64,000 nucleotides of DNA from an uncultured Gemmatimonadales bacterium. Lineage in GTDB: Bacteria; Gemmatimonadota; Gemmatimonadetes; Gemmatimonadales; GWC2-71-9. The DNA lies in contig CAWJIM010000018.1 of NCBI GenBank assembly GCA_963842945.1, forward strand, positions 84,550-148,549, read 5' to 3'. Position 1 is the first letter of the stretch; each line of letters starts with the position of its first letter. This document shows positions 39,069 through 55,817 of this stretch, piece by piece. The notes below the pieces were generated by a model, which worked only from the letters and a program-made list of their open reading frames with translations, was not told where the DNA came from and did no database searches. Both the position numbers and the translations under genes were made by a program.

Positions 39069-39142
39069 TGGGCGATGAGGGGCTCGAACCCCCGACCTCG
39101 CGCATGTGAGGCGCGCGCTCTAACCAGCTGAGCTAATCGCCC
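39069..39142 (-). tRNA. tRNA-Val(CAC)
   Basis: GGGCGATTAGCTCAGCTGGTTAGAGC-GCGCGC-CTCACAT-GCGCG-AGGTCGGGGGTTCGAGCCCCTCATCGCCCA forms a cloverleaf; CCA not encoded. Confidence 0.97.
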
Positions 39143-39187: not shown

Positions 39188-39218
39188 AAAAAAGCCCCGC
39201 GATCTCGCAGGGCTTTTT
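39188..39218. terminator. Intrinsic terminator (bidirectional form)
   Basis: AAAAAAGCCC...GGGCTTTTT hairpin downstream of 39250..40377. Confidence 0.75.
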
Positions 39219-39249: not shown

Positions 39250-40377
39250 CTACCTGCAGCTCTTGAACGGCTTGCTGCGGGCCTTGGTCCCCAGAGCGCT
39301 CAGGGCCGCCTTGATGTCCGAGCGAGCCATGTACTGGGCGTTGTACTTCCAGTTGAGGAAGGCACAGGGATAGGAGTTGCTGAGCAAGGCAGATCCCAAG
39401 GTCTTGAGCTGAGTGGCGGTCATGGATCCCCACCCACTGTAATAGCCCCGCAGGCCACCGTTCTTGGTTGCGGCGAGCTGATTCATCCCAACCACCAAGG
39501 AAAGTCCCGCCGCCTTGGCGTAATTCACGTTCGAGTTCAGGTAGTTGGTGACCGAGCCGAACCGCAGGGTGTACTGAGCCCAGGCACCGTCCAGATAGCT
39601 GTAGCGGTAGCCCTTGAGATAGGTGGGCGGGGAGCGAACGAGGGTGGCCATCCCGGGCCAGATCGACTTGCTGAACTTGGCCATGGCATCGAGGGTCTGG
39701 CGAGAGACCGTGGTGCCATTCCAGTTGCTGGGATCGTGCGGCTCATCGATCAGCCGGTGGCCAATGATGGTGCCGTCGGTGATGTACGGGTTCAGGTTGA
39801 GACCCTTGTACCGCGACACCAGGGACCTCCACTTGTCGAAGCTGAAGTGGCCGGCGCCGTCCTTGAAGTAGCGTTCGTTACCGACCATCACCACCATAAC
39901 GCGGGTGCCGCTGCGGCGCGCCGCCTCGAGATAGCTGAGGAGGGCGGACGGGCCGGGGTTGCTGAGCGCGCCGCTGTAGCGGCCGTAGAGCTCCTTCGGC
40001 AGCTGGGTGACGCCGAGGGGGATGCCGCCCCGGTACAGCAGGTTCGACATTCCAGGCGCGGCCGCGATGGCGCTGGGCGCGGAGAAGTTAAAGGGCCCAT
40101 TGTCCTCTTCGACCGGATCGTCGTCGGTGTTGTAGATCGGCCTACCGCCGGTGGGATCGTTCGGATCGGTGGCGCCGAGGGTGTCCTCCAGCGTCAGGGC
40201 AGTGGGATCGGCCGCACTGGGCTCGACCGCTGCGGGGACTACAGGCTGCTCTTCGGCTGGGGTGCTGCTGGTGATCTGATCGGCTGAGTCGCAGGCGGCA
40301 AAGCTCAGGGCAGCAAGGGCAATCAGGGACGCTCGAAATCGTGCCGGACGCCGATTCAGATGCAGGGTGTAGGTCAT
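39250..40377 (-). CDS. Lipoprotein with putative TIM-barrel glycoside-hydrolase-like domain (paralog A)
   Basis: MTYTLHLNRR N-terminus, FAAC lipobox, GH.LIDEP motif; homologous to 40833..42092. Confidence 0.8.
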   Translation of the reverse strand: MTYTLHLNRRPARFRASLIALAALSFAACDSADQITSSTPAEEQPVVPAAVEPSAADPTALTLEDTLGATDPNDPTGGRPIYNTDDDPVEEDNGPFNFSAPSAIAAAPGMSNLLYRGGIPLGVTQLPKELYGRYSGALSNPGPSALLSYLEAARRSGTRVMVVMVGNERYFKDGAGHFSFDKWRSLVSRYKGLNLNPYITDGTIIGHRLIDEPHDPSNWNGTTVSRQTLDAMAKFSKSIWPGMATLVRSPPTYLKGYRYSYLDGAWAQYTLRFGSVTNYLNSNVNYAKAAGLSLVVGMNQLAATKNGGLRGYYSGWGSMTATQLKTLGSALLSNSYPCAFLNWKYNAQYMARSDIKAALSALGTKARSKPFKSCR

Positions 40378-40427
40378 ACGTAACGTTCCTCTCTCCGTCG
40401 AAAGAATGAAGGAGACTCCACGGTTTG

Positions 40428-40500
40428 GTCGCGGCAGGCGAGGGGCCGACGCCGGCAGGGCCGGGTACGGCGGCTCATCGCGCGAGTTCTGACGCGAGGG
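40428..40500 (-). ncRNA. Candidate cis-regulatory leader RNA, copy A
   Basis: Conserved blocks shared with 42127..42199; 50 nt upstream of the ATG. Confidence 0.55.
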
Positions 40501-40783
40501 GAAAGGCTACAATTAGCCTTTGGCCCGACTGTGTTGTGTTACGGGGTGTTGCTGAGACTACGGGGAAATAGTCGTACAGGGCGCGATGGAATGACCACCG
40601 GGTAGCGATCATCTCGTTGTCATGAGTGCCCGCGCCGGATACAGAATCGTGACGTCAGTCACTTTTGTCAAGGGCCAAATTCCTAAGTCGTGCCTGAGTC
40701 ACGATCTACAAAGAAGTTGCGGATGGGAGGACTCCATCCCGTGGGCCGGAGCGGAAGACTCTGGCTGTTGGTCCCAATAACAC

Positions 40784-40810
40784 AGAACCCCCGGCGAAAC
40801 CGGGGGCTCT
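40784..40810 (-). terminator. Hairpin/probable terminator after paralog B
   Basis: AGAGCCCCCGG-TTTCG-CCGGGGGTTCT followed by GTGTTATT. Confidence 0.6.
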
Positions 40811-40832
40811 GGTCAAGTGCGGTGGGGAAATA

Positions 40833-42092
40833 TCAAGGGAAGCTGATCGTAACCTTGTTGGAACAGCGCGATGTTCCGGTCTCGCAGATCCAATAGGTAT
40901 ACTGGCCGGAGCTCTTGGGATGGTTTCTCCAGCGGCCGTCGTTCTCGATCGTCCTGCTGAGCGTTGCGTTGCGGTGCACTTTCACCGATGCGCCTGAGGC
41001 GCCCAACCAGGTGAGCACGTTGTAGCGAATCCGGTTCTGTACCATCGAGGTCACCTTGAGTGCAATGCCGCTGACTCCAGGCAGCGAAGGCGGTGGCGGC
41101 TCGTCCGGCGGAGGAGGAGGAGCAGATGCACCGTTTCCGCAGGAGCGGGACGCATGCGCCCGGGCCTTCTGCGCCAGGGAGGACATCGCCGTTCTGATTT
41201 CGGGCCGTGACATATACGAATCACGATACTGCCAGCTGATGAAGGCGCAGGGATAGCTGTCGGACAGGAGCGCCGAGCCCCAGGTCTCGAGCTGCTGCGG
41301 GCTGAGCTCGGTACCCTTTAGGGTTCCCAGGCTGATGTTCAGTCCCACCACCAGAGCCAGACCCTTGCTCTTGGCCGAGGCGACGTTGGCCGCGAGGAAC
41401 GCCCTGGGGTCGCCGAAACGCTCGGTGTACTGGGCCCAGGCCGCATCCAGGTACTTGTAGGTGGTAGTGAAATTGTCCATGTACGTCGGAGAGGCCCGTA
41501 CGATGGTGTTCATGCCAGGCCAGAGTGACTTGCTGTATTTGGCCATTTCGTCGACCATAGAGCCCGGAATCGGTTCGCCGTTCCAGTTTGCCGGATCATT
41601 GGGCTCATCGATCAGGTAGTGCCCGATGACAGTCCCATCGGCTACGTAGGAGCTGAGGTTCAGCCCTTTGTACCGATTGATCCGCTCCTTCCACAGGCTC
41701 AAGCTGAAGTGTCCCTGCCCGTCCCGGAAGTACTTTTGATCGCCCCCCATCGCGAGGATCACCCGGCCGCCCCGGGCCTTGATCTCGGCCAGAGTCCTCA
41801 GCATGAGGTCGGGAGAAATGTTCATCTTGGCGCCGTTGAGGACGTTGCCGAACGCCTCAGTGGGCTGAGCGAAAGTGCCGAAGGGAATCCCGCCGGCGAA
41901 GGTGGCGGAGAGCGAAGGCGCCACGGTGCTGGTGGCGACGGGGGCCGGCTCACTGAGGCTGATGACTTCTGGTTCGTCGGAGTTGGGTGCGACTTGGTCG
42001 GTGTTGCAGGCGGCGATGGCGGCGGTGAGCGCGATCAACGGCAATGCTCGGTGACCGGCGGTCCGTCGGGCCAACTTGAACAGGTAGGTCAT
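40833..42092 (-). CDS. Lipoprotein with putative TIM-barrel GH-like domain plus Pro linker and small C-terminal beta domain (paralog B)
   Basis: MTYLFKLARR N-terminus, IAAC lipobox, GHYLIDEP. Confidence 0.8.
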   Translation of the reverse strand: MTYLFKLARRTAGHRALPLIALTAAIAACNTDQVAPNSDEPEVISLSEPAPVATSTVAPSLSATFAGGIPFGTFAQPTEAFGNVLNGAKMNISPDLMLRTLAEIKARGGRVILAMGGDQKYFRDGQGHFSLSLWKERINRYKGLNLSSYVADGTVIGHYLIDEPNDPANWNGEPIPGSMVDEMAKYSKSLWPGMNTIVRASPTYMDNFTTTYKYLDAAWAQYTERFGDPRAFLAANVASAKSKGLALVVGLNISLGTLKGTELSPQQLETWGSALLSDSYPCAFISWQYRDSYMSRPEIRTAMSSLAQKARAHASRSCGNGASAPPPPPDEPPPPSLPGVSGIALKVTSMVQNRIRYNVLTWLGASGASVKVHRNATLSRTIENDGRWRNHPKSSGQYTYWICETGTSRCSNKVTISFP

Positions 42093-42126
42093 GCTGTCGC
42101 CTTCCGATAGCTGAGGGTGGCGGTAC

Positions 42127-42199
42127 GTCGCGGTCAGTTCGGTGGGCCGGCGCCGGCGTAGCGGTGCGGCGGCTCATCGAGATCGGGCTGACCCGAGGG
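42127..42199 (-). ncRNA. Candidate cis-regulatory leader RNA, copy B
   Basis: Conserved blocks shared with 40428..40500; 34 nt upstream of the ATG. Confidence 0.55.
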
Positions 42200-42421
42200 A
42201 CGAGAGAGGGACTCGACCCGAAGTACGGCGGCTACGGGACTTGCGCGGGTGGCCCTGAAGGCAGGCCCTGCCGCGTTGGTCGAGTATCGGTCAGGAACGT
42301 GGGAGCTTTAGCGCCTAGTGTGCGATTGGACTGACCAGCAGAGGTTCAGGACGGACCTTAGCAGCGCGGGGGGAGTGTGGCTGGGCGGCTTGAGCAGGCT
42401 AACTCGGCGGTCCCTTCGTGA

Positions 42422-45400
42422 TCAAGTTTCCTCATTTCGCACACTGCCTGGGGGTACCCCCACCGAGATCGTCTGCGCAGGCGGCGGCTCGTTCACTGTA
42501 TGCTGCGCGGTAGCGGAGCTGCCTTGGAAGCTCGCGTTTCCCTCATAGGTGGCGCTGATTGTTCGGCTGCCGGTTCCGTTGGGGGTGTAGCTGCAGTTCC
42601 CCGAGGGTGCACTTCCGGTGCAGCCGCCGCCACTTTCATCAGTGATGGTGACGGTGCCACCGGGAGTTCCTGACCCAGAGGTGACGGTGAAGCTCACGGT
42701 AATCTGCTGCCCCGGATCGGAGGGCTCAGGGTTGTGATTCGTGATGGTCGTGGTGGTGGCAGCCGGCTGTGGCGGCGGCGGTTCATTCACGGTGTGCTGG
42801 TCCGTGTCGCTGCTGCCCTGGAAGCTCTGGTTCCCCTCGTAGGTTGCAGTGATGGTTCGACTCCCACTCCCGCTGGGGGTATAGCTACAGCTGCCGGAGG
42901 GAGCATTCCCCGTACATCCGCCACCGTTCGCGTCACTTATTCGCACCGTCCCGTTCGGAGTGCCCGAACTCGAGGTCACGCTAAAGGTCACCGTGATCTG
43001 CTGCCCCGGATCCGATGGATCTGGATTGTCACTCGTGAGCTCCGTCGTCGTAGTTCGCCGGGGGCGGCGCCTTGGCCTCCGCGTCGTGGTCTCTGCTATC
43101 GGTGCCACCCCGATCGTCCGTCACCACCAGAGTGACCTTGTACTTGCCGGGCGTCGTGTACGTATGACTCGGATTCGTCTCAGTCGAGCTGGTGCCGTCG
43201 CCGAAGGTCCAGCTGTGGCTCTGGATCGTCCCGTCATCGTCGGTGCTGCGATCCTGGAACCCGCAGGTCATGTCAGTGCAGTGGACCTCGAATTCGGCAT
43301 GCGGCGCCTTGTTCTCAGGCGGTGGTGGGGGCGCCTTGGCCTCTGCGTCATGGTCCCTGCTATCGGTCCCACCCCGATCGTCCGTCACCACCAGAGTGAC
43401 CTTGTACTTGCCGGGCGTGGTGTACGTATGACTCGGATTCGTCTCCGTCGAATTAGTGCCGTCGCCAAAGCTCCAGCTGTGGCCCTGGATCGTCCCATCA
43501 TCGTCGGTGCTGCGATCCTGGAACGCGCAGGTCATGTCGGTGCAGTGGACCTCGAACTCCGCATGCGGCGCTTTGTTGGCCGGTGGCGGAGGCGGCGTCG
43601 CGGTGACCTGGTGGGTGACCGAGGCGCTGGCGCCGTCGTCGTCGGTCACGGTCAGCGTCACATTGTAGGTATTTGGGGCACCATACGTATGGTTCGGACT
43701 CCGCTGATCTGAGCTGCCGCCGTCTCCGAAGTTCCAGCTGTAGCTCCGGACCTGCCCGTCGCTGTCGCCGCTTCCATCCGAATTGAAGCCGCAGGTGAGC
43801 TGGTTGCAGGTCGCGCTGAACGCCGCAGTCGGAGGCTGATTCCCGGCGCGGGGGCGGCGGCGCATCCACCCGGTGCGATTCGGTATCGAAGCTCCCGGTG
43901 AGTCCCGCCGACCCGGCATACGTCGCCCGCAGGGTTCTGTTCCCTACGGTCGAGAGCGGCAGCGGGCAGCCTCCCGTCCCTCCCACCAGCGTTGCGTCGC
44001 AGCTCTCCACGCCATCGGTCACCGTCACCGTCCCGAGCGGTACCACCCCCACAGCCGTAACCTGGACCGTAACCGTCACCGCTCCGCCGGCCACCGACGG
44101 ATCGGGCGAGTCGCTGGTGATGGCGGTGCTGGTCGGAACAGTGCTGTACCACGATGACATCCGACGTCGCGCCGCCGAAGCCGCCCGCGGTGAACACCAG
44201 ACGGCGCGGCCCCTCCGCACCCGCGATGGCGAGATCGGTGTACGCCACCCGTCCATTCGCGTCGCTGCCGAGCTGGCGGGTGCCCAGCAGCTCACCGCCG
44301 CCTCCGGCGAGCTGGGCGGTCACGACGACGCCCGGTTGGGGGTTCCCTGCCCCGTCCCGTACCTGGATCACCGGCTGCCGCTCCAGCGCCTGTCCGTTGG
44401 TGGCCGAGCCGGAGGGCTGGGTCACGATGACCAGTCCAGCCGGGCGAGCAGCGGTTCCGATCGCGGTGAAGTGCACCACCCCTACACCCGACACCACCGC
44501 GTCCACCCGATTCTCCCCCGGGTTTGGACCCAGCGTCCAGCGGGAGGAGCTGCGGCCGGCCTCATCGGTGACGGTATTTTCGGGCGAGACCCCGCCGCCT
44601 CCGGTTCCCACCACCCAGGTCACGGCCGCCCCGGGGACGCCGTTCCCGCCAGCATCCACCAGCCGTACTACCAGATCCCCGGGAAGCGTGCTCCCGGCCT
44701 GCGCCGTCTGCCCGTCGCCGGAGACGACTGAGAGACCGGCTGCGCTTCCGGCGGTAGCATTATGAGTGAAGGTGACCGGGGATCCGGCGAGCCCCTCCGA
44801 TGTGGCCACGGTGGTCTGGATTCCGGCGGTGGGCCCCAGAGTGCGCTGAACCGACGCGCGTCCGTCGGCATCGGTTTGATTCGACGCCACACTGACGCTT
44901 CCCCCGCCTTCGGCTGCCCAGTTGATCGGCACCCCGGCGATGGGATTGCCGAATGCGTCGCTCACCTGCACTACCAGCGGCTGGCTCAGCGCCGTGCCGG
45001 CTGGCGCGGTCTGGTCGTCGCCCGAGAGCGCAGTGATTCCGTTGGCGTTCTCCGAGAGCGCAGTAGATGTGAAGTTAGTCGTCGGCCCGGGCGACCCATC
45101 GGGCATCACCACCCGGGCCTGCCCCACTTGCGCGCCGATCGTAGTGCCCAGCACCACGCGGATCGCCGCCCGTCCGTCCGCGTTGGTCTCTGTCGTATCG
45201 GGCACCACATCCGCCCCCGGCACCGAGCTGAGGTCGAACACGATCCGGGCACCCTCGACCGGGCGAAGCCGCGAGTCGCTCACCATGAAGGAAACGGAAT
45301 CGGCCAGCGGCTCGCCCACCCGCCCGCTTTGCCCATCGTTCTCCGCCCGGATCGAGACCGGCTGTCCGTCGCCCGGGAGCAGCAGGAGGTCAGACCCCTC

Positions 45401-45508
45401 GCCGCAGGCGGCGGCGAGCAGCACGGCGCATGCGGCCAGGATGGCGTTCAAGGGCGCCCGGCGGCTAGACGGGGTCTCCGGATCGAGGCAAGCGGCGGGG
45501 AGTGGCAC
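42422..45508 (-). CDS. Large surface lipoprotein with Big_1/Ig-like and PKD domains (several apparent frameshifts)
   Basis: LAAC lipobox; SGDDQTA..G..L..PLVV.V.D..GN repeats; WNFGDG/WSFGDG PKD motifs spread over four ORF pieces. Confidence 0.8.
43066..43577. repeat. Tandem 264-bp duplication encoding two PKD domains
   Basis: Near-identical DNA at 43066-43313 and 43330-43577 (NKAPHAEFEVHCTDMTC... twice). Confidence 0.9.
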
Positions 45509-55272: not shown

Positions 55273-55817
55273 TGCGCATACTTCCTCCAGTATCAGCCAG
55301 TGAAATTGGAACCCTGCATTTCGACTTCATGGTGTCTACACAAAAAGCGGTGCCGTTCTGGGCTCGAGGCCGAGGACGGCACCGCGCTGGTAAGCGCTGT
55401 GACTACCTTCGGCACCGGGCTATCTCACATCGCCCTGTGAGACCCCTTAGTTTTGCGGCCCCGGATCACTCCGGGTGTGCTCTTATCGGGCAGTTCAGCA
55501 TTGTGGACGACTGGTTCTGCGAAGGGTGTGTCTCTGCAAAGTGCAGGCCTCCGGGCACCTACGGAGGTTTGTTTTAGTTATGCAATCGGGTGCGGTGCGC
55601 GCTGGCCCCTATCGCGAACCGACATCAGTGGTGTCTTCGAATTAGCAATGTCATAATCTTGACCTCGTAAGCCGATGCAGGTGCACAAAAGGGCATCTCA
55701 GACTTCCTGCATCTCGCGAGGACTCGGGTGAACCTGCCTGAGCCGGAGGACAGCTGTCCGAGGTGGTGCCGCCTGGCCCTTAACCATTCGGGCCGCCGTA
55801 CCGACCTGTTCAAATCC

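Follow-up and report, generated by a model that had tools for sequence, protein, structure and literature searches.

A conserved, probably structured RNA hairpin in the 5' leaders of lipoprotein genes of one Gemmatimonadales genus

The window analyzed here, a stretch of 64,000 nucleotides (nt) from an uncultured Gemmatimonadales bacterium (contig CAWJIM010000018.1, positions 84,550 to 148,549), encodes two paralogous lipoproteins on its minus strand, and a copy of the same non-coding block lies upstream of each of their genes, A and B. The repeat is real, and the block, which we call D3, is probably a folded RNA hairpin that has not been described before. It is a cis element of lipoprotein-gene 5' leaders that is conserved, probably structured and probably transcribed. 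Our preferred reading, held tentatively, is that D3 is a post-transcriptional control hairpin for the output of surface lipoproteins and is bound by a factor. Beyond the position, the conservation and the probable fold, every mechanistic step given below is one that we infer. As judged from sequence, D3 appears to represent a real, undescribed family of structured leader RNAs of a known general kind, accompanied in most leaders by a second motif, D1.

The repeated block and its distribution

Block A (40428-40500) and block B (42127-42199), both on the minus strand, lie 50 nt from the ATG of gene A at 40377 and 34 nt from the ATG of gene B at 42092, where the original prediction, made from the letters of the window, had placed them. 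The global alignment of the two 73-mers contains 56 identities, 15 mismatches and 4 gaps and scores 84, against a mean of 28 and a maximum of 56 for 2000 shuffles. In a local alignment the pair scores 52, compared with 32/31 for the next best match within the window. Since the blocks are 79% identical while only 33 of 84 four-fold degenerate sites (39%) are identical between the paralogous genes, the block stands well above the neutral level, as had been supposed. The 73 nt upstream of the blocks align no better between A and B than shuffles do. The flanks had accordingly been described as unrelated, which is correct between the two copies, but the A flank is strongly conserved across the genus. 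Of the two short upstream elements that had been counted as part of the shared motif, CCCGTAG does not hold, being CCCCTAG in the orthologues of A and CCAAGTAG in those of B, while TCGGG is present in both copies but belongs to the 5' arm of a separate upstream hairpin (D2, see below).

No Rfam 15 family matched either block at the gathering score, and the five matches with E ≤ 10 in the region 40300-42500 overlap neither of them, in line with the remark that the motif fits no recognized riboswitch consensus. In 20 further loci that were scanned, no family reached the gathering threshold over D3 or D1, and the scan returned nothing other than a c-di-GMP-I (cyclic di-GMP) riboswitch downstream of D1 in two loci.

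A covariance model of D3 was built from an alignment of 30 motif copies. In the 4.3-Mb genome to which the window belongs (the own genome) it finds exactly two matches, copies A and B, and profile and pattern searches starting from these two copies revealed no third. Among related genomes, the model yields 146 matches (E ≤ 0.01) within one Gemmatimonadales genus, where 90 of 103 genomes have at least one, and none in 147 genomes sampled under strict filters from 77 other genera of the same family. A phylum sample with 139 genomes from outside the genus gave three weak matches (29-33 bits), all without the core and all within long open reading frames (ORFs); we attribute them to chance. D3 thus appears confined to one genus, with no credible match outside it in the samples searched. 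We should note that related genomes are kin and not independent observations, and that the genus tallies for D3, D1 and c-di-GMP-I, together with one pairing count, take in one unpublished genome (G214).

The search loci and 100 regions together gave 139 distinct full D3 matches. Three weak ones were dropped as false: two loci without D1 and without a barrel gene (L154, L155), the former apparently inside a coding region, and a weak match on the reverse strand of L179. One truncated match was dropped as well. Among the remaining 136 copies, 126 precede the same family of barrel lipoproteins, so the downstream gene class is indeed consistent, and 121 follow D1. A pattern scan of metagenomes gave at least 11 full D3 copies among 120 pattern loci, at least 10 of them before the barrel family, while none of 18 pattern loci in viral contigs is a full D3.

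Fold and conservation of D3

D3 probably folds into a hairpin, with moderate support from covariation. In copy A (40431..40495, minus strand) the outer helix GCGUCAG/CUGCCGC, with a variable 5' bulge of 4-12 nt, encloses an inner helix with mismatches (CGA..GCC/GGC..UCG) and an apical GGC-loop-GCC. Copy B (42131..42195, minus strand) scores 49.1 bits (E 1.8e-7) with the covariance model, being itself part of the training alignment. Across 97 distinct, mostly held-out sequences in a model-fitted alignment, 91.3% of the cells are paired and 16 of the 23 pairs undergo two-sided changes, a value as high as which occurred in 0 of 500 shuffles; a slid control is lower too. The MAFFT alignment of the training set has the two inner helices paired at 96.7 and 99.2% and the outer helix at 72.5%. 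In this outer helix, which corresponds to the proposed pairing of the block ends, a U.C mismatch occurs in 48 of the 97 sequences and the pairing amounts to only 72-82%. In five divergent copies (L197, L204, L205, L206 and L209) the outer helix, examined by eye, has another sequence and yet remains complementary.

A structure-free alignment of 121 whole leaders points to the same local folds. The four helices with the most compensatory events on the tree are local hairpins, namely the inner helix of D1 (8.8 events), the inner helix of D3 (7.0), D2 (5.8) and the outer helix of D1 (5.0). No junction or pseudoknot was detected in D3 in this alignment, where D3 is an unbranched hairpin. Its mismatches become Watson-Crick pairs in some homologues, for example L145, L180 and L006.

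The sequence of D3 is more constant than that of its surroundings. D3 has a mean of 10.7 substitutions per column (6.1 in its 5' core), compared with 12.6 in the Shine-Dalgarno sequence (SD), 18.1 in D2, and 25.4 in the first codons; the promoter spacer reaches 40 and the region before the promoter 47. In several paired columns 96-97 of 97 sequences agree, a near-invariance that suggests sequence-specific recognition.

We consider it very improbable that the block acts as a DNA-level site, either an inverted-repeat operator or a cruciform, or that it encodes a short upstream ORF (uORF) beginning with MSRR. The ends of the block do form an imperfect inverted repeat, but the spacing of the two arms varies with the bulge of 4-12 nt, G-U pairs are frequent when the mRNA strand is considered (one pair is GU in 29 sequences, and a second one is UG in 29), and predicted promoters and the ends of RNA contigs lie upstream of D3. 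The start codon of the MSRRT uORF, which had been offered as an alternative from the ATG in both window copies, is not maintained either: ATG stands at this place in only 62 of 136 copies, with ACG in 52, AAG in 13 and another triplet in 9. The claim of a structured cis element in the leader is in turn supported by the genus-wide conservation, the predicted promoters upstream of both copies and the compensatory changes.

Leader architecture and the proposed control by D3

The analysis extends the original prediction in two respects: the block belongs, together with other modules, to a leader of ~260 nt, and this leader contains a second, more widespread motif. In 121 of 136 copies the leader runs from the promoter through D1, D1b, an A/C-rich linker, D2 and D3 to a final hairpin in which the SD is hidden. 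D3 follows the predicted promoter, usually with 20-45 nt between it and the start codon region.

Gene A is preceded by a predicted sigma70 promoter (40643..40671, minus strand) with TTGACA at 40666-40671, a 17-nt spacer and GATTCT at 40643-40648; TTGAC is present in 120 of the 121 leaders with both D1 and D3. Between the -35 and -10 elements lies a CRP/FNR-like palindrome (GTGA-N6-TCAC, 40649-40662), which we take to be CRP-like and which occurs in 87 of these 121 leaders versus 0 of 40 leaders with D1 only. Its position suggests repression, and two CRP-family genes of the own genome exceed the cut-off. The predicted transcript begins with D1 (40580..40636, minus strand), composed of an outer helix GGCGCG(A/G)/UCGCGCC, conserved ACGAGAUG and CAUUCC stretches and an inner hairpin. 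The D1b hairpin follows at 40551..40573 (minus strand; GACUA/UAGUC and then a conserved UCAGC), with a pairing assigned by eye that is not among the covarying helices. The D2 hairpin of copy A (40498..40526, minus strand) pairs GGCUA with UAGCC, and most homologues have GGCAG/CUGCC instead. Downstream of D3, the D4 hairpin (40387..40415, minus strand) pairs UCUCC with the SD of gene A, GGAGAGAGGA. No SD had been seen in the original prediction; the main ORF of gene A has a strong one, located inside this hairpin. Among 89 homologous leaders with an SD pattern, the SD is predicted to be more than half paired in 92%.

The organization differs in copy B and its orthologues, which lack D1 and have a predicted sigma28-type promoter. 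For gene B, we take the sequence TAAA-N15-ACCGATA (42285..42310, minus strand) to be a promoter of the FliA/WhiG type. This pattern occurs once in the own genome, with a control of 0, and FliA_WhiG is found there over the cut-off; a promoter of this type is visible by eye upstream of 10 of 18 matches without D1. Directly after it comes a hexamer resembling TTGAC; the corresponding sequence of L006 is a complete sigma70 promoter that leads into D1. A D2-like hairpin of copy B (42197..42219, minus strand) was recognized by eye from the sequence and from the orthologues L034, L035 and L042. D3 is thus retained behind two promoter types and also without D1.

D1, about 60 nt long and at the 5' end of the predicted transcript, appears to be a second undescribed structured motif. 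With 288 matches, spread over 96 of the 103 genomes of the genus, it is commoner than D3, and its models find nothing in the 147 genomes of the family sample or in the 139 of the phylum sample. The own genome has four copies, at 40580-40636(-) of the window and at C24:391409-391468(+), C20:169464-169522(-) and C18:54228-54294(+). Two-sided changes occur at 9 of 16 pairs in a MAFFT alignment of 64 sequences, and the covariation test returns one pair all-against-all and 3 of the 16 proposed pairs, somewhat better than for D3. D1 sits just behind the TTGACA promoters of diverse lipoprotein genes. At least 55 loci among the 150 matches listed have D1 only; in the 40 of these that were examined TTGAC stands directly upstream of D1 in every case, and the genes that follow encode barrel paralogues (14), di-haem DHOR (11) or di-haem peroxidase proteins (2), ricin-lectin/beta-helix (2) or beta-helix proteins (4) and unclassified proteins (7). 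Since the di-haem class is unrelated to glycans, the signal of D1 may differ from that of D3. Lipoproteins of the di-haem DHOR/peroxidase type stand behind D1 in L212, L220, L225, L229, L233, L234, L236 and L237, and further in L238, L239, L241, L242, L244 and L247. Other D1-only leaders have their own conserved sets of hairpins before the ribosome-binding site (RBS), as in C18:54300-54480(+), L243, L249, L230, L213-L215, L222 and L235. Some of these share the apical CGGC-loop-GCC(G) of D3 (by eye), and these hairpin sets may be distant relatives of D3 missed by the model. A uORF starting from an ATG inside D1 was rejected by eye on account of in-frame stops and indels at differing places.

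The c-di-GMP-I riboswitch (GEMM-I, RF01051) takes the position of D3 in one of the leaders. In L211 (1221-1309, minus strand) the usual front end of promoter, D1, D1b and linker is followed by c-di-GMP-I (56.9 bits) where D2 and D3 normally stand, and in L219 (1336-1426, minus strand) D1 stands in tandem with it (46.9 bits). Within the genus, 100 of 103 genomes contain the family, with 1-14 copies each (10 in the own genome), against 0 of 14 control genomes. Like D3, it is found in 5' leaders of genes for secreted or surface proteins of this genus. D3 differs from it in that it has no RF01051 match, is unbranched and has no GGCAAA, GNRA loop or GACGCAAA. A decorated c-di-GMP-I as the identity of D3 was likewise rejected, since the GGCAAA...GACGCAAA core and the GNRA tetraloop/receptor are absent from 30 and 99 aligned copies examined by eye.

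These two cases raise the question of whether D3, alone or with D1 and D2, itself belongs to a new riboswitch class that responds to a nucleotide second messenger or to a sugar or cell-surface precursor and switches the translation of a surface-glycan regulon. The secreted glycan-type folds encoded downstream, the glycosyl- and sugar transferases among the neighbors (L037, L040), the conserved sequence of the irregular regions of D3 and the sequestered SD all fit such a role. Nevertheless, we regard it as unlikely. D3 is an unbranched hairpin with neither a junction nor a pseudoknot detected, its mismatches turn into Watson-Crick pairs in some homologues, the motif is limited to one genus, and with c-di-GMP-I in nearly all genomes of that genus a second c-di-GMP sensor would be less needed. 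Moreover, no long-range alternative helix has compensatory support in the 121-leader structure-free alignment. Complementary runs that could join D1 to D3 or D3 to the anti-SD do exist, and as candidate pairings they were rejected with only 0-1.6 compensatory events. The folding models of 36 leaders predict no conserved switch. No intrinsic terminator is apparent in the leader, in that the consensus of the 121 leaders has no conserved U run by eye. We also find doubtful a broader version of this idea, a plug-in leader in which D1 (~290 copies) is followed by an exchangeable slot for D2 and D3, c-di-GMP-I or other hairpins, and in which D3, D1 or both would be a new riboswitch class gating the barrel lipoproteins.

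For evidence of transcription, four (X1, X2, X4 and X5) of 16 soil and rhizosphere RNA runs holding small shares of the region were compared at the contig level. Leader A is covered by metatranscriptome contigs from three studies with 0-2 differences, and three contig ends (40623, 40626 and 40626) fall 10-13 nt inside the predicted start at ~40636. The stretch 40638-40988 has zero cover in all four runs. X4 has no cover of leader A, and leader B is almost uncovered in any run, a gap that proves nothing. Contigs X1 record 8 (40259-40623) and X5 record 32 (40125-40626) run from D1 through D3 into the coding sequence. The contig ends near the predicted start give a weak but consistent hint of transcription. 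A further X2 contig (depth 2.8) skips 40464-40577 (112 nt), so that D1 runs directly into the middle of D3; its shorter side has 23 letters, and it probably stems from another organism or is an artefact.

One X2 contig (40429-40626) ends at the 3' base of D3 and has a depth of 18, versus 2-7 for the listed pieces of coding sequence. Such an end could be taken as a sign that D3 is a processing or stability element, that is, a duplex that RNase III would cleave or an obstacle in the path of nucleases, which would set the lifetime of the mRNA or release a stable leader fragment with no signal-specific factor. Long irregular duplexes fit the substrates of double-strand nucleases, and both the length and the irregular shape of D3 are of this kind; the replaceable sequence of the outer helix, whose pairing stays, would suit the same role. 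Against this, the end is seen in a single contig, contig depth cannot rank the parts of a gene, the X1 and X5 contigs pass D3, and the near-invariant sequence of the inner helices goes beyond the need of a generic duplex. This role is therefore improbable in our view.

A factor-bound control hairpin remains the reading that we prefer. D3 is more conserved than the SD, D2 and the first codons and survives both the change of promoter and the loss of D1, for which a recognition site of a trans-acting factor is the simplest account. D3 would then act in cis, as an RNA hairpin within a leader built of modules, and set the output of surface-anchored, glycan-active lipoproteins post-transcriptionally. 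Transcripts would start at D1 in A-type leaders or from the sigma28 promoter in B-type leaders, and translation would be weak by default with the SD hidden in a local hairpin. A putative trans-acting factor, most likely an RNA-binding protein and possibly a nuclease or a small RNA, would recognize D3 by its near-invariant G-C pairs, its mismatch-rich middle helix and its apical GGC-loop-GCC, and binding or cleavage at D3 would alter either ribosome access or the lifetime of the mRNA. A separate transcriptional gate could be provided by a CRP-family regulator at the A-type promoter or by sigma28 in the B-type.

Several results weigh against this reading. A binding factor was not found, although no search was aimed at one. 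The covariation test was a home-made tree-aware G-test after the R-scape null as outlined in PMC11234323, with a null that was rate-weighted in one all-pairs run and uniform in the other. The covariation that had been anticipated is visible as two-sided changes beyond those of shuffles, but no D3 pair reached E<0.05 in the all-pairs test, and of the 23 proposed pairs only three are significant in the model-fitted and one in the MAFFT alignment. The power of the test is low because many paired D3 columns hardly vary. Folding of single sequences exceeds that of shuffles only slightly, with z-scores of -1.79 for copy A and +0.17 for copy B, with a mean of -1.34 over 33 homologues. In silico, 36 of 61 sampled leaders could be used, 25 being skipped by pattern filters. 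Removing D3 from them shifts the opening energy of the RBS by a mean of -0.33 kcal; freeing the 5' half of D3 shifts it by -0.71 kcal on average and by more than 1.5 kcal in 9 of the 36. Blocking D3 or either of its halves changes it by 0 to -0.7 kcal on average, versus -1.9 for a local anti-SD spacer. With effects this small, a coupling between D3 and the RBS is not predicted from secondary structure alone. The RNA contigs come from related strains, show neither strand nor start and lack a DNA-run control. Finally, all copies are kin within one genus and stand mostly before one gene family, and the shared ancestry of a cassette of promoter, leader and signal peptide explains part of the D3 pattern.

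Taken to its end, this last point would make the whole leader an inherited expression cassette copied onto new catalytic domains, with D3 as constitutive folding insulation instead of a regulatory element. We find this quite unlikely. The 5' parts of the genes are visibly homologous across paralogues, and the restriction to a single genus and the lack of a predicted switch agree with it, but the signal-peptide codons and the other hairpins vary more than D3 does, D3 is kept in B-type copies that have another promoter and no D1, and barrel paralogues without D3 exist (five of seven in the own genome).

Downstream genes, comparison with known systems and further features

Gene A (39250..40377, minus strand) encodes a lipoprotein of 375 amino acids (aa) with an extended basic n-region, a lipobox, a low-complexity linker and a (beta/alpha)8 barrel, and appears to be monocistronic. 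Gene B (40833..42092, minus strand) encodes a paralogous lipoprotein of 419 aa with 49% identity to protein A and an extra C-terminal domain. A lipobox-like pattern (pattern match only) is present in 126 of 135 ORFs downstream of D3, and the column of the lipobox Cys is more than 90% conserved. D3 also precedes unrelated mature domains: beta-helix proteins in L140, L151 and L153, a GT2 protein with an uncertain start in L147, and proteins without a Pfam match in L114, L146, L195 and L207. As far as the models indicate, secreted glycan-type folds are the common theme of the downstream genes. The original prediction had joined leader, N-terminal tag and secreted barrel into one system. Its barrel is of the glycosidase type, but the FKLxRR-like tag is loose, occurring in 46 of 135 downstream ORFs, and two genes of the own genome, C20:168971(-) and C23:206635(-), which encode Ig-like lipoproteins (by eye), have a MTYTFKxxRR N-terminus and no D3. 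Tag and motif are therefore not an obligate unit.

The barrel family has members in 36 of 36 genomes of the genus, with up to 12 per genome, compared with one weak match in 24 other genomes; the relatives of protein A come from Gemmatimonadales assemblies. Pfam contains no family for protein A or for 69 members, beyond a weak DUF4434 match in two of them, and a sequence search of the PDB gave nothing informative. The ESM Atlas returned unnamed clusters and, as a lead only, DUF4434 at 0.89. The AlphaFold model of aa 112-375 of protein A has a predicted local distance difference test (pLDDT) score of 95.8, and its best structural matches are 4ucf of GH42 (Z 17.6) and 1rh9 of GH5 (Z 17.4), in agreement with Foldseek. 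The matches to GH42, GH5 and GH164 have Z-scores of 17.0-17.6 and root-mean-square deviations of 3.3-3.6 over 240-243 residues at 8-15% identity. The barrel family shares with these members of clan GH-A the (beta/alpha)8 barrel and a Glu in the acid/base position after strand 4, where the acidic pair D211-E212 is conserved in 69 of 69 and 67 of 69 members, respectively. It differs at the end of strand 7 (182-188 of the model), where Asn299, invariant in 69 of 69, occupies the place of what we take, following the clan GH-A rule, to be the nucleophile Glu. The spacing H-x-x-x-D-E presumably resembles that of GH20. According to the model, the family looks like a glycosidase without being a canonical member of clan GH-A.

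Orphan cis-regulatory motifs (PMC5737381, PMC8632094, PMC11109978) are lineage-restricted and structured and precede a consistent class of genes, as does D3; here, by contrast, two separable motifs and a swappable slot occur within one leader family. A count of the string 'Gemmatimonad' gives 0 for the main text of each of the three papers, and the string is also absent from the main text of bioRxiv 10.64898/2026.10.21.760802; unnamed clusters in supplements of such studies may contain these motifs. In the open-access literature we found no prior description of D3 or D1 and no paper on any RNA motif of the Gemmatimonadota. A different kind of relative is provided by the protein-bound leader hairpins RAT (BglG/LicT) and EAR (eps operons of Bacillus). 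Like D3, they are irregular hairpins with internal loops before or within carbohydrate-related genes. D3 differs in having no Rfam match and no overlapping terminator and, since gene A is apparently monocistronic as well, antitermination is not needed. ROSE thermometers and leaders processed by RNase III likewise consist of a chain of hairpins that ends in an SD-hiding hairpin. The leaders described here have no Rfam match, precede genes other than heat-shock genes and are most conserved in D1 and D3, not in the SD hairpin. A likeness to guanidine-III (ykkC-III) was rejected: the GCCGUACCCGG-like stretch is found in copy A only, has no Rfam match at E ≤ 10 and varies in homologues, and the downstream genes have no connection with the export of guanidine.

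Very little has been described of gene regulation in Gemmatimonadota. The two compact multi-copy motifs come with alignments of ~136 and 64 sequences, with predicted promoters and with a natural swap for a c-di-GMP riboswitch, and their analysis also revealed an unclassified, genus-expanded family of glycosidase-fold lipoproteins without a canonical nucleophile. Should D3 or D1 bind a ligand, it would constitute a new riboswitch class; should it bind a protein, it would mark a post-transcriptional regulon for surface remodeling in a soil lineage. This significance is limited in that the motifs are narrowly distributed and a switch is unproven.

The window has several further features. A terminator-like hairpin 3' of gene B (40783..40811, minus strand) would separate this gene from leader A, and a putative bidirectional one lies 3' of gene A (39188..39218), directly followed by a tRNA gene (39069-39142, minus strand). 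A c-di-GMP-I riboswitch at 55408-55491 (minus strand; 47.1 bits) precedes a small ORF for a putative lipoprotein. An Ig/PKD-repeat surface protein (42422-45508, minus strand) appears to be split over three overlapping ORFs, probably as a result of assembly frameshifts, while orthologous loci contain one long PKD ORF.

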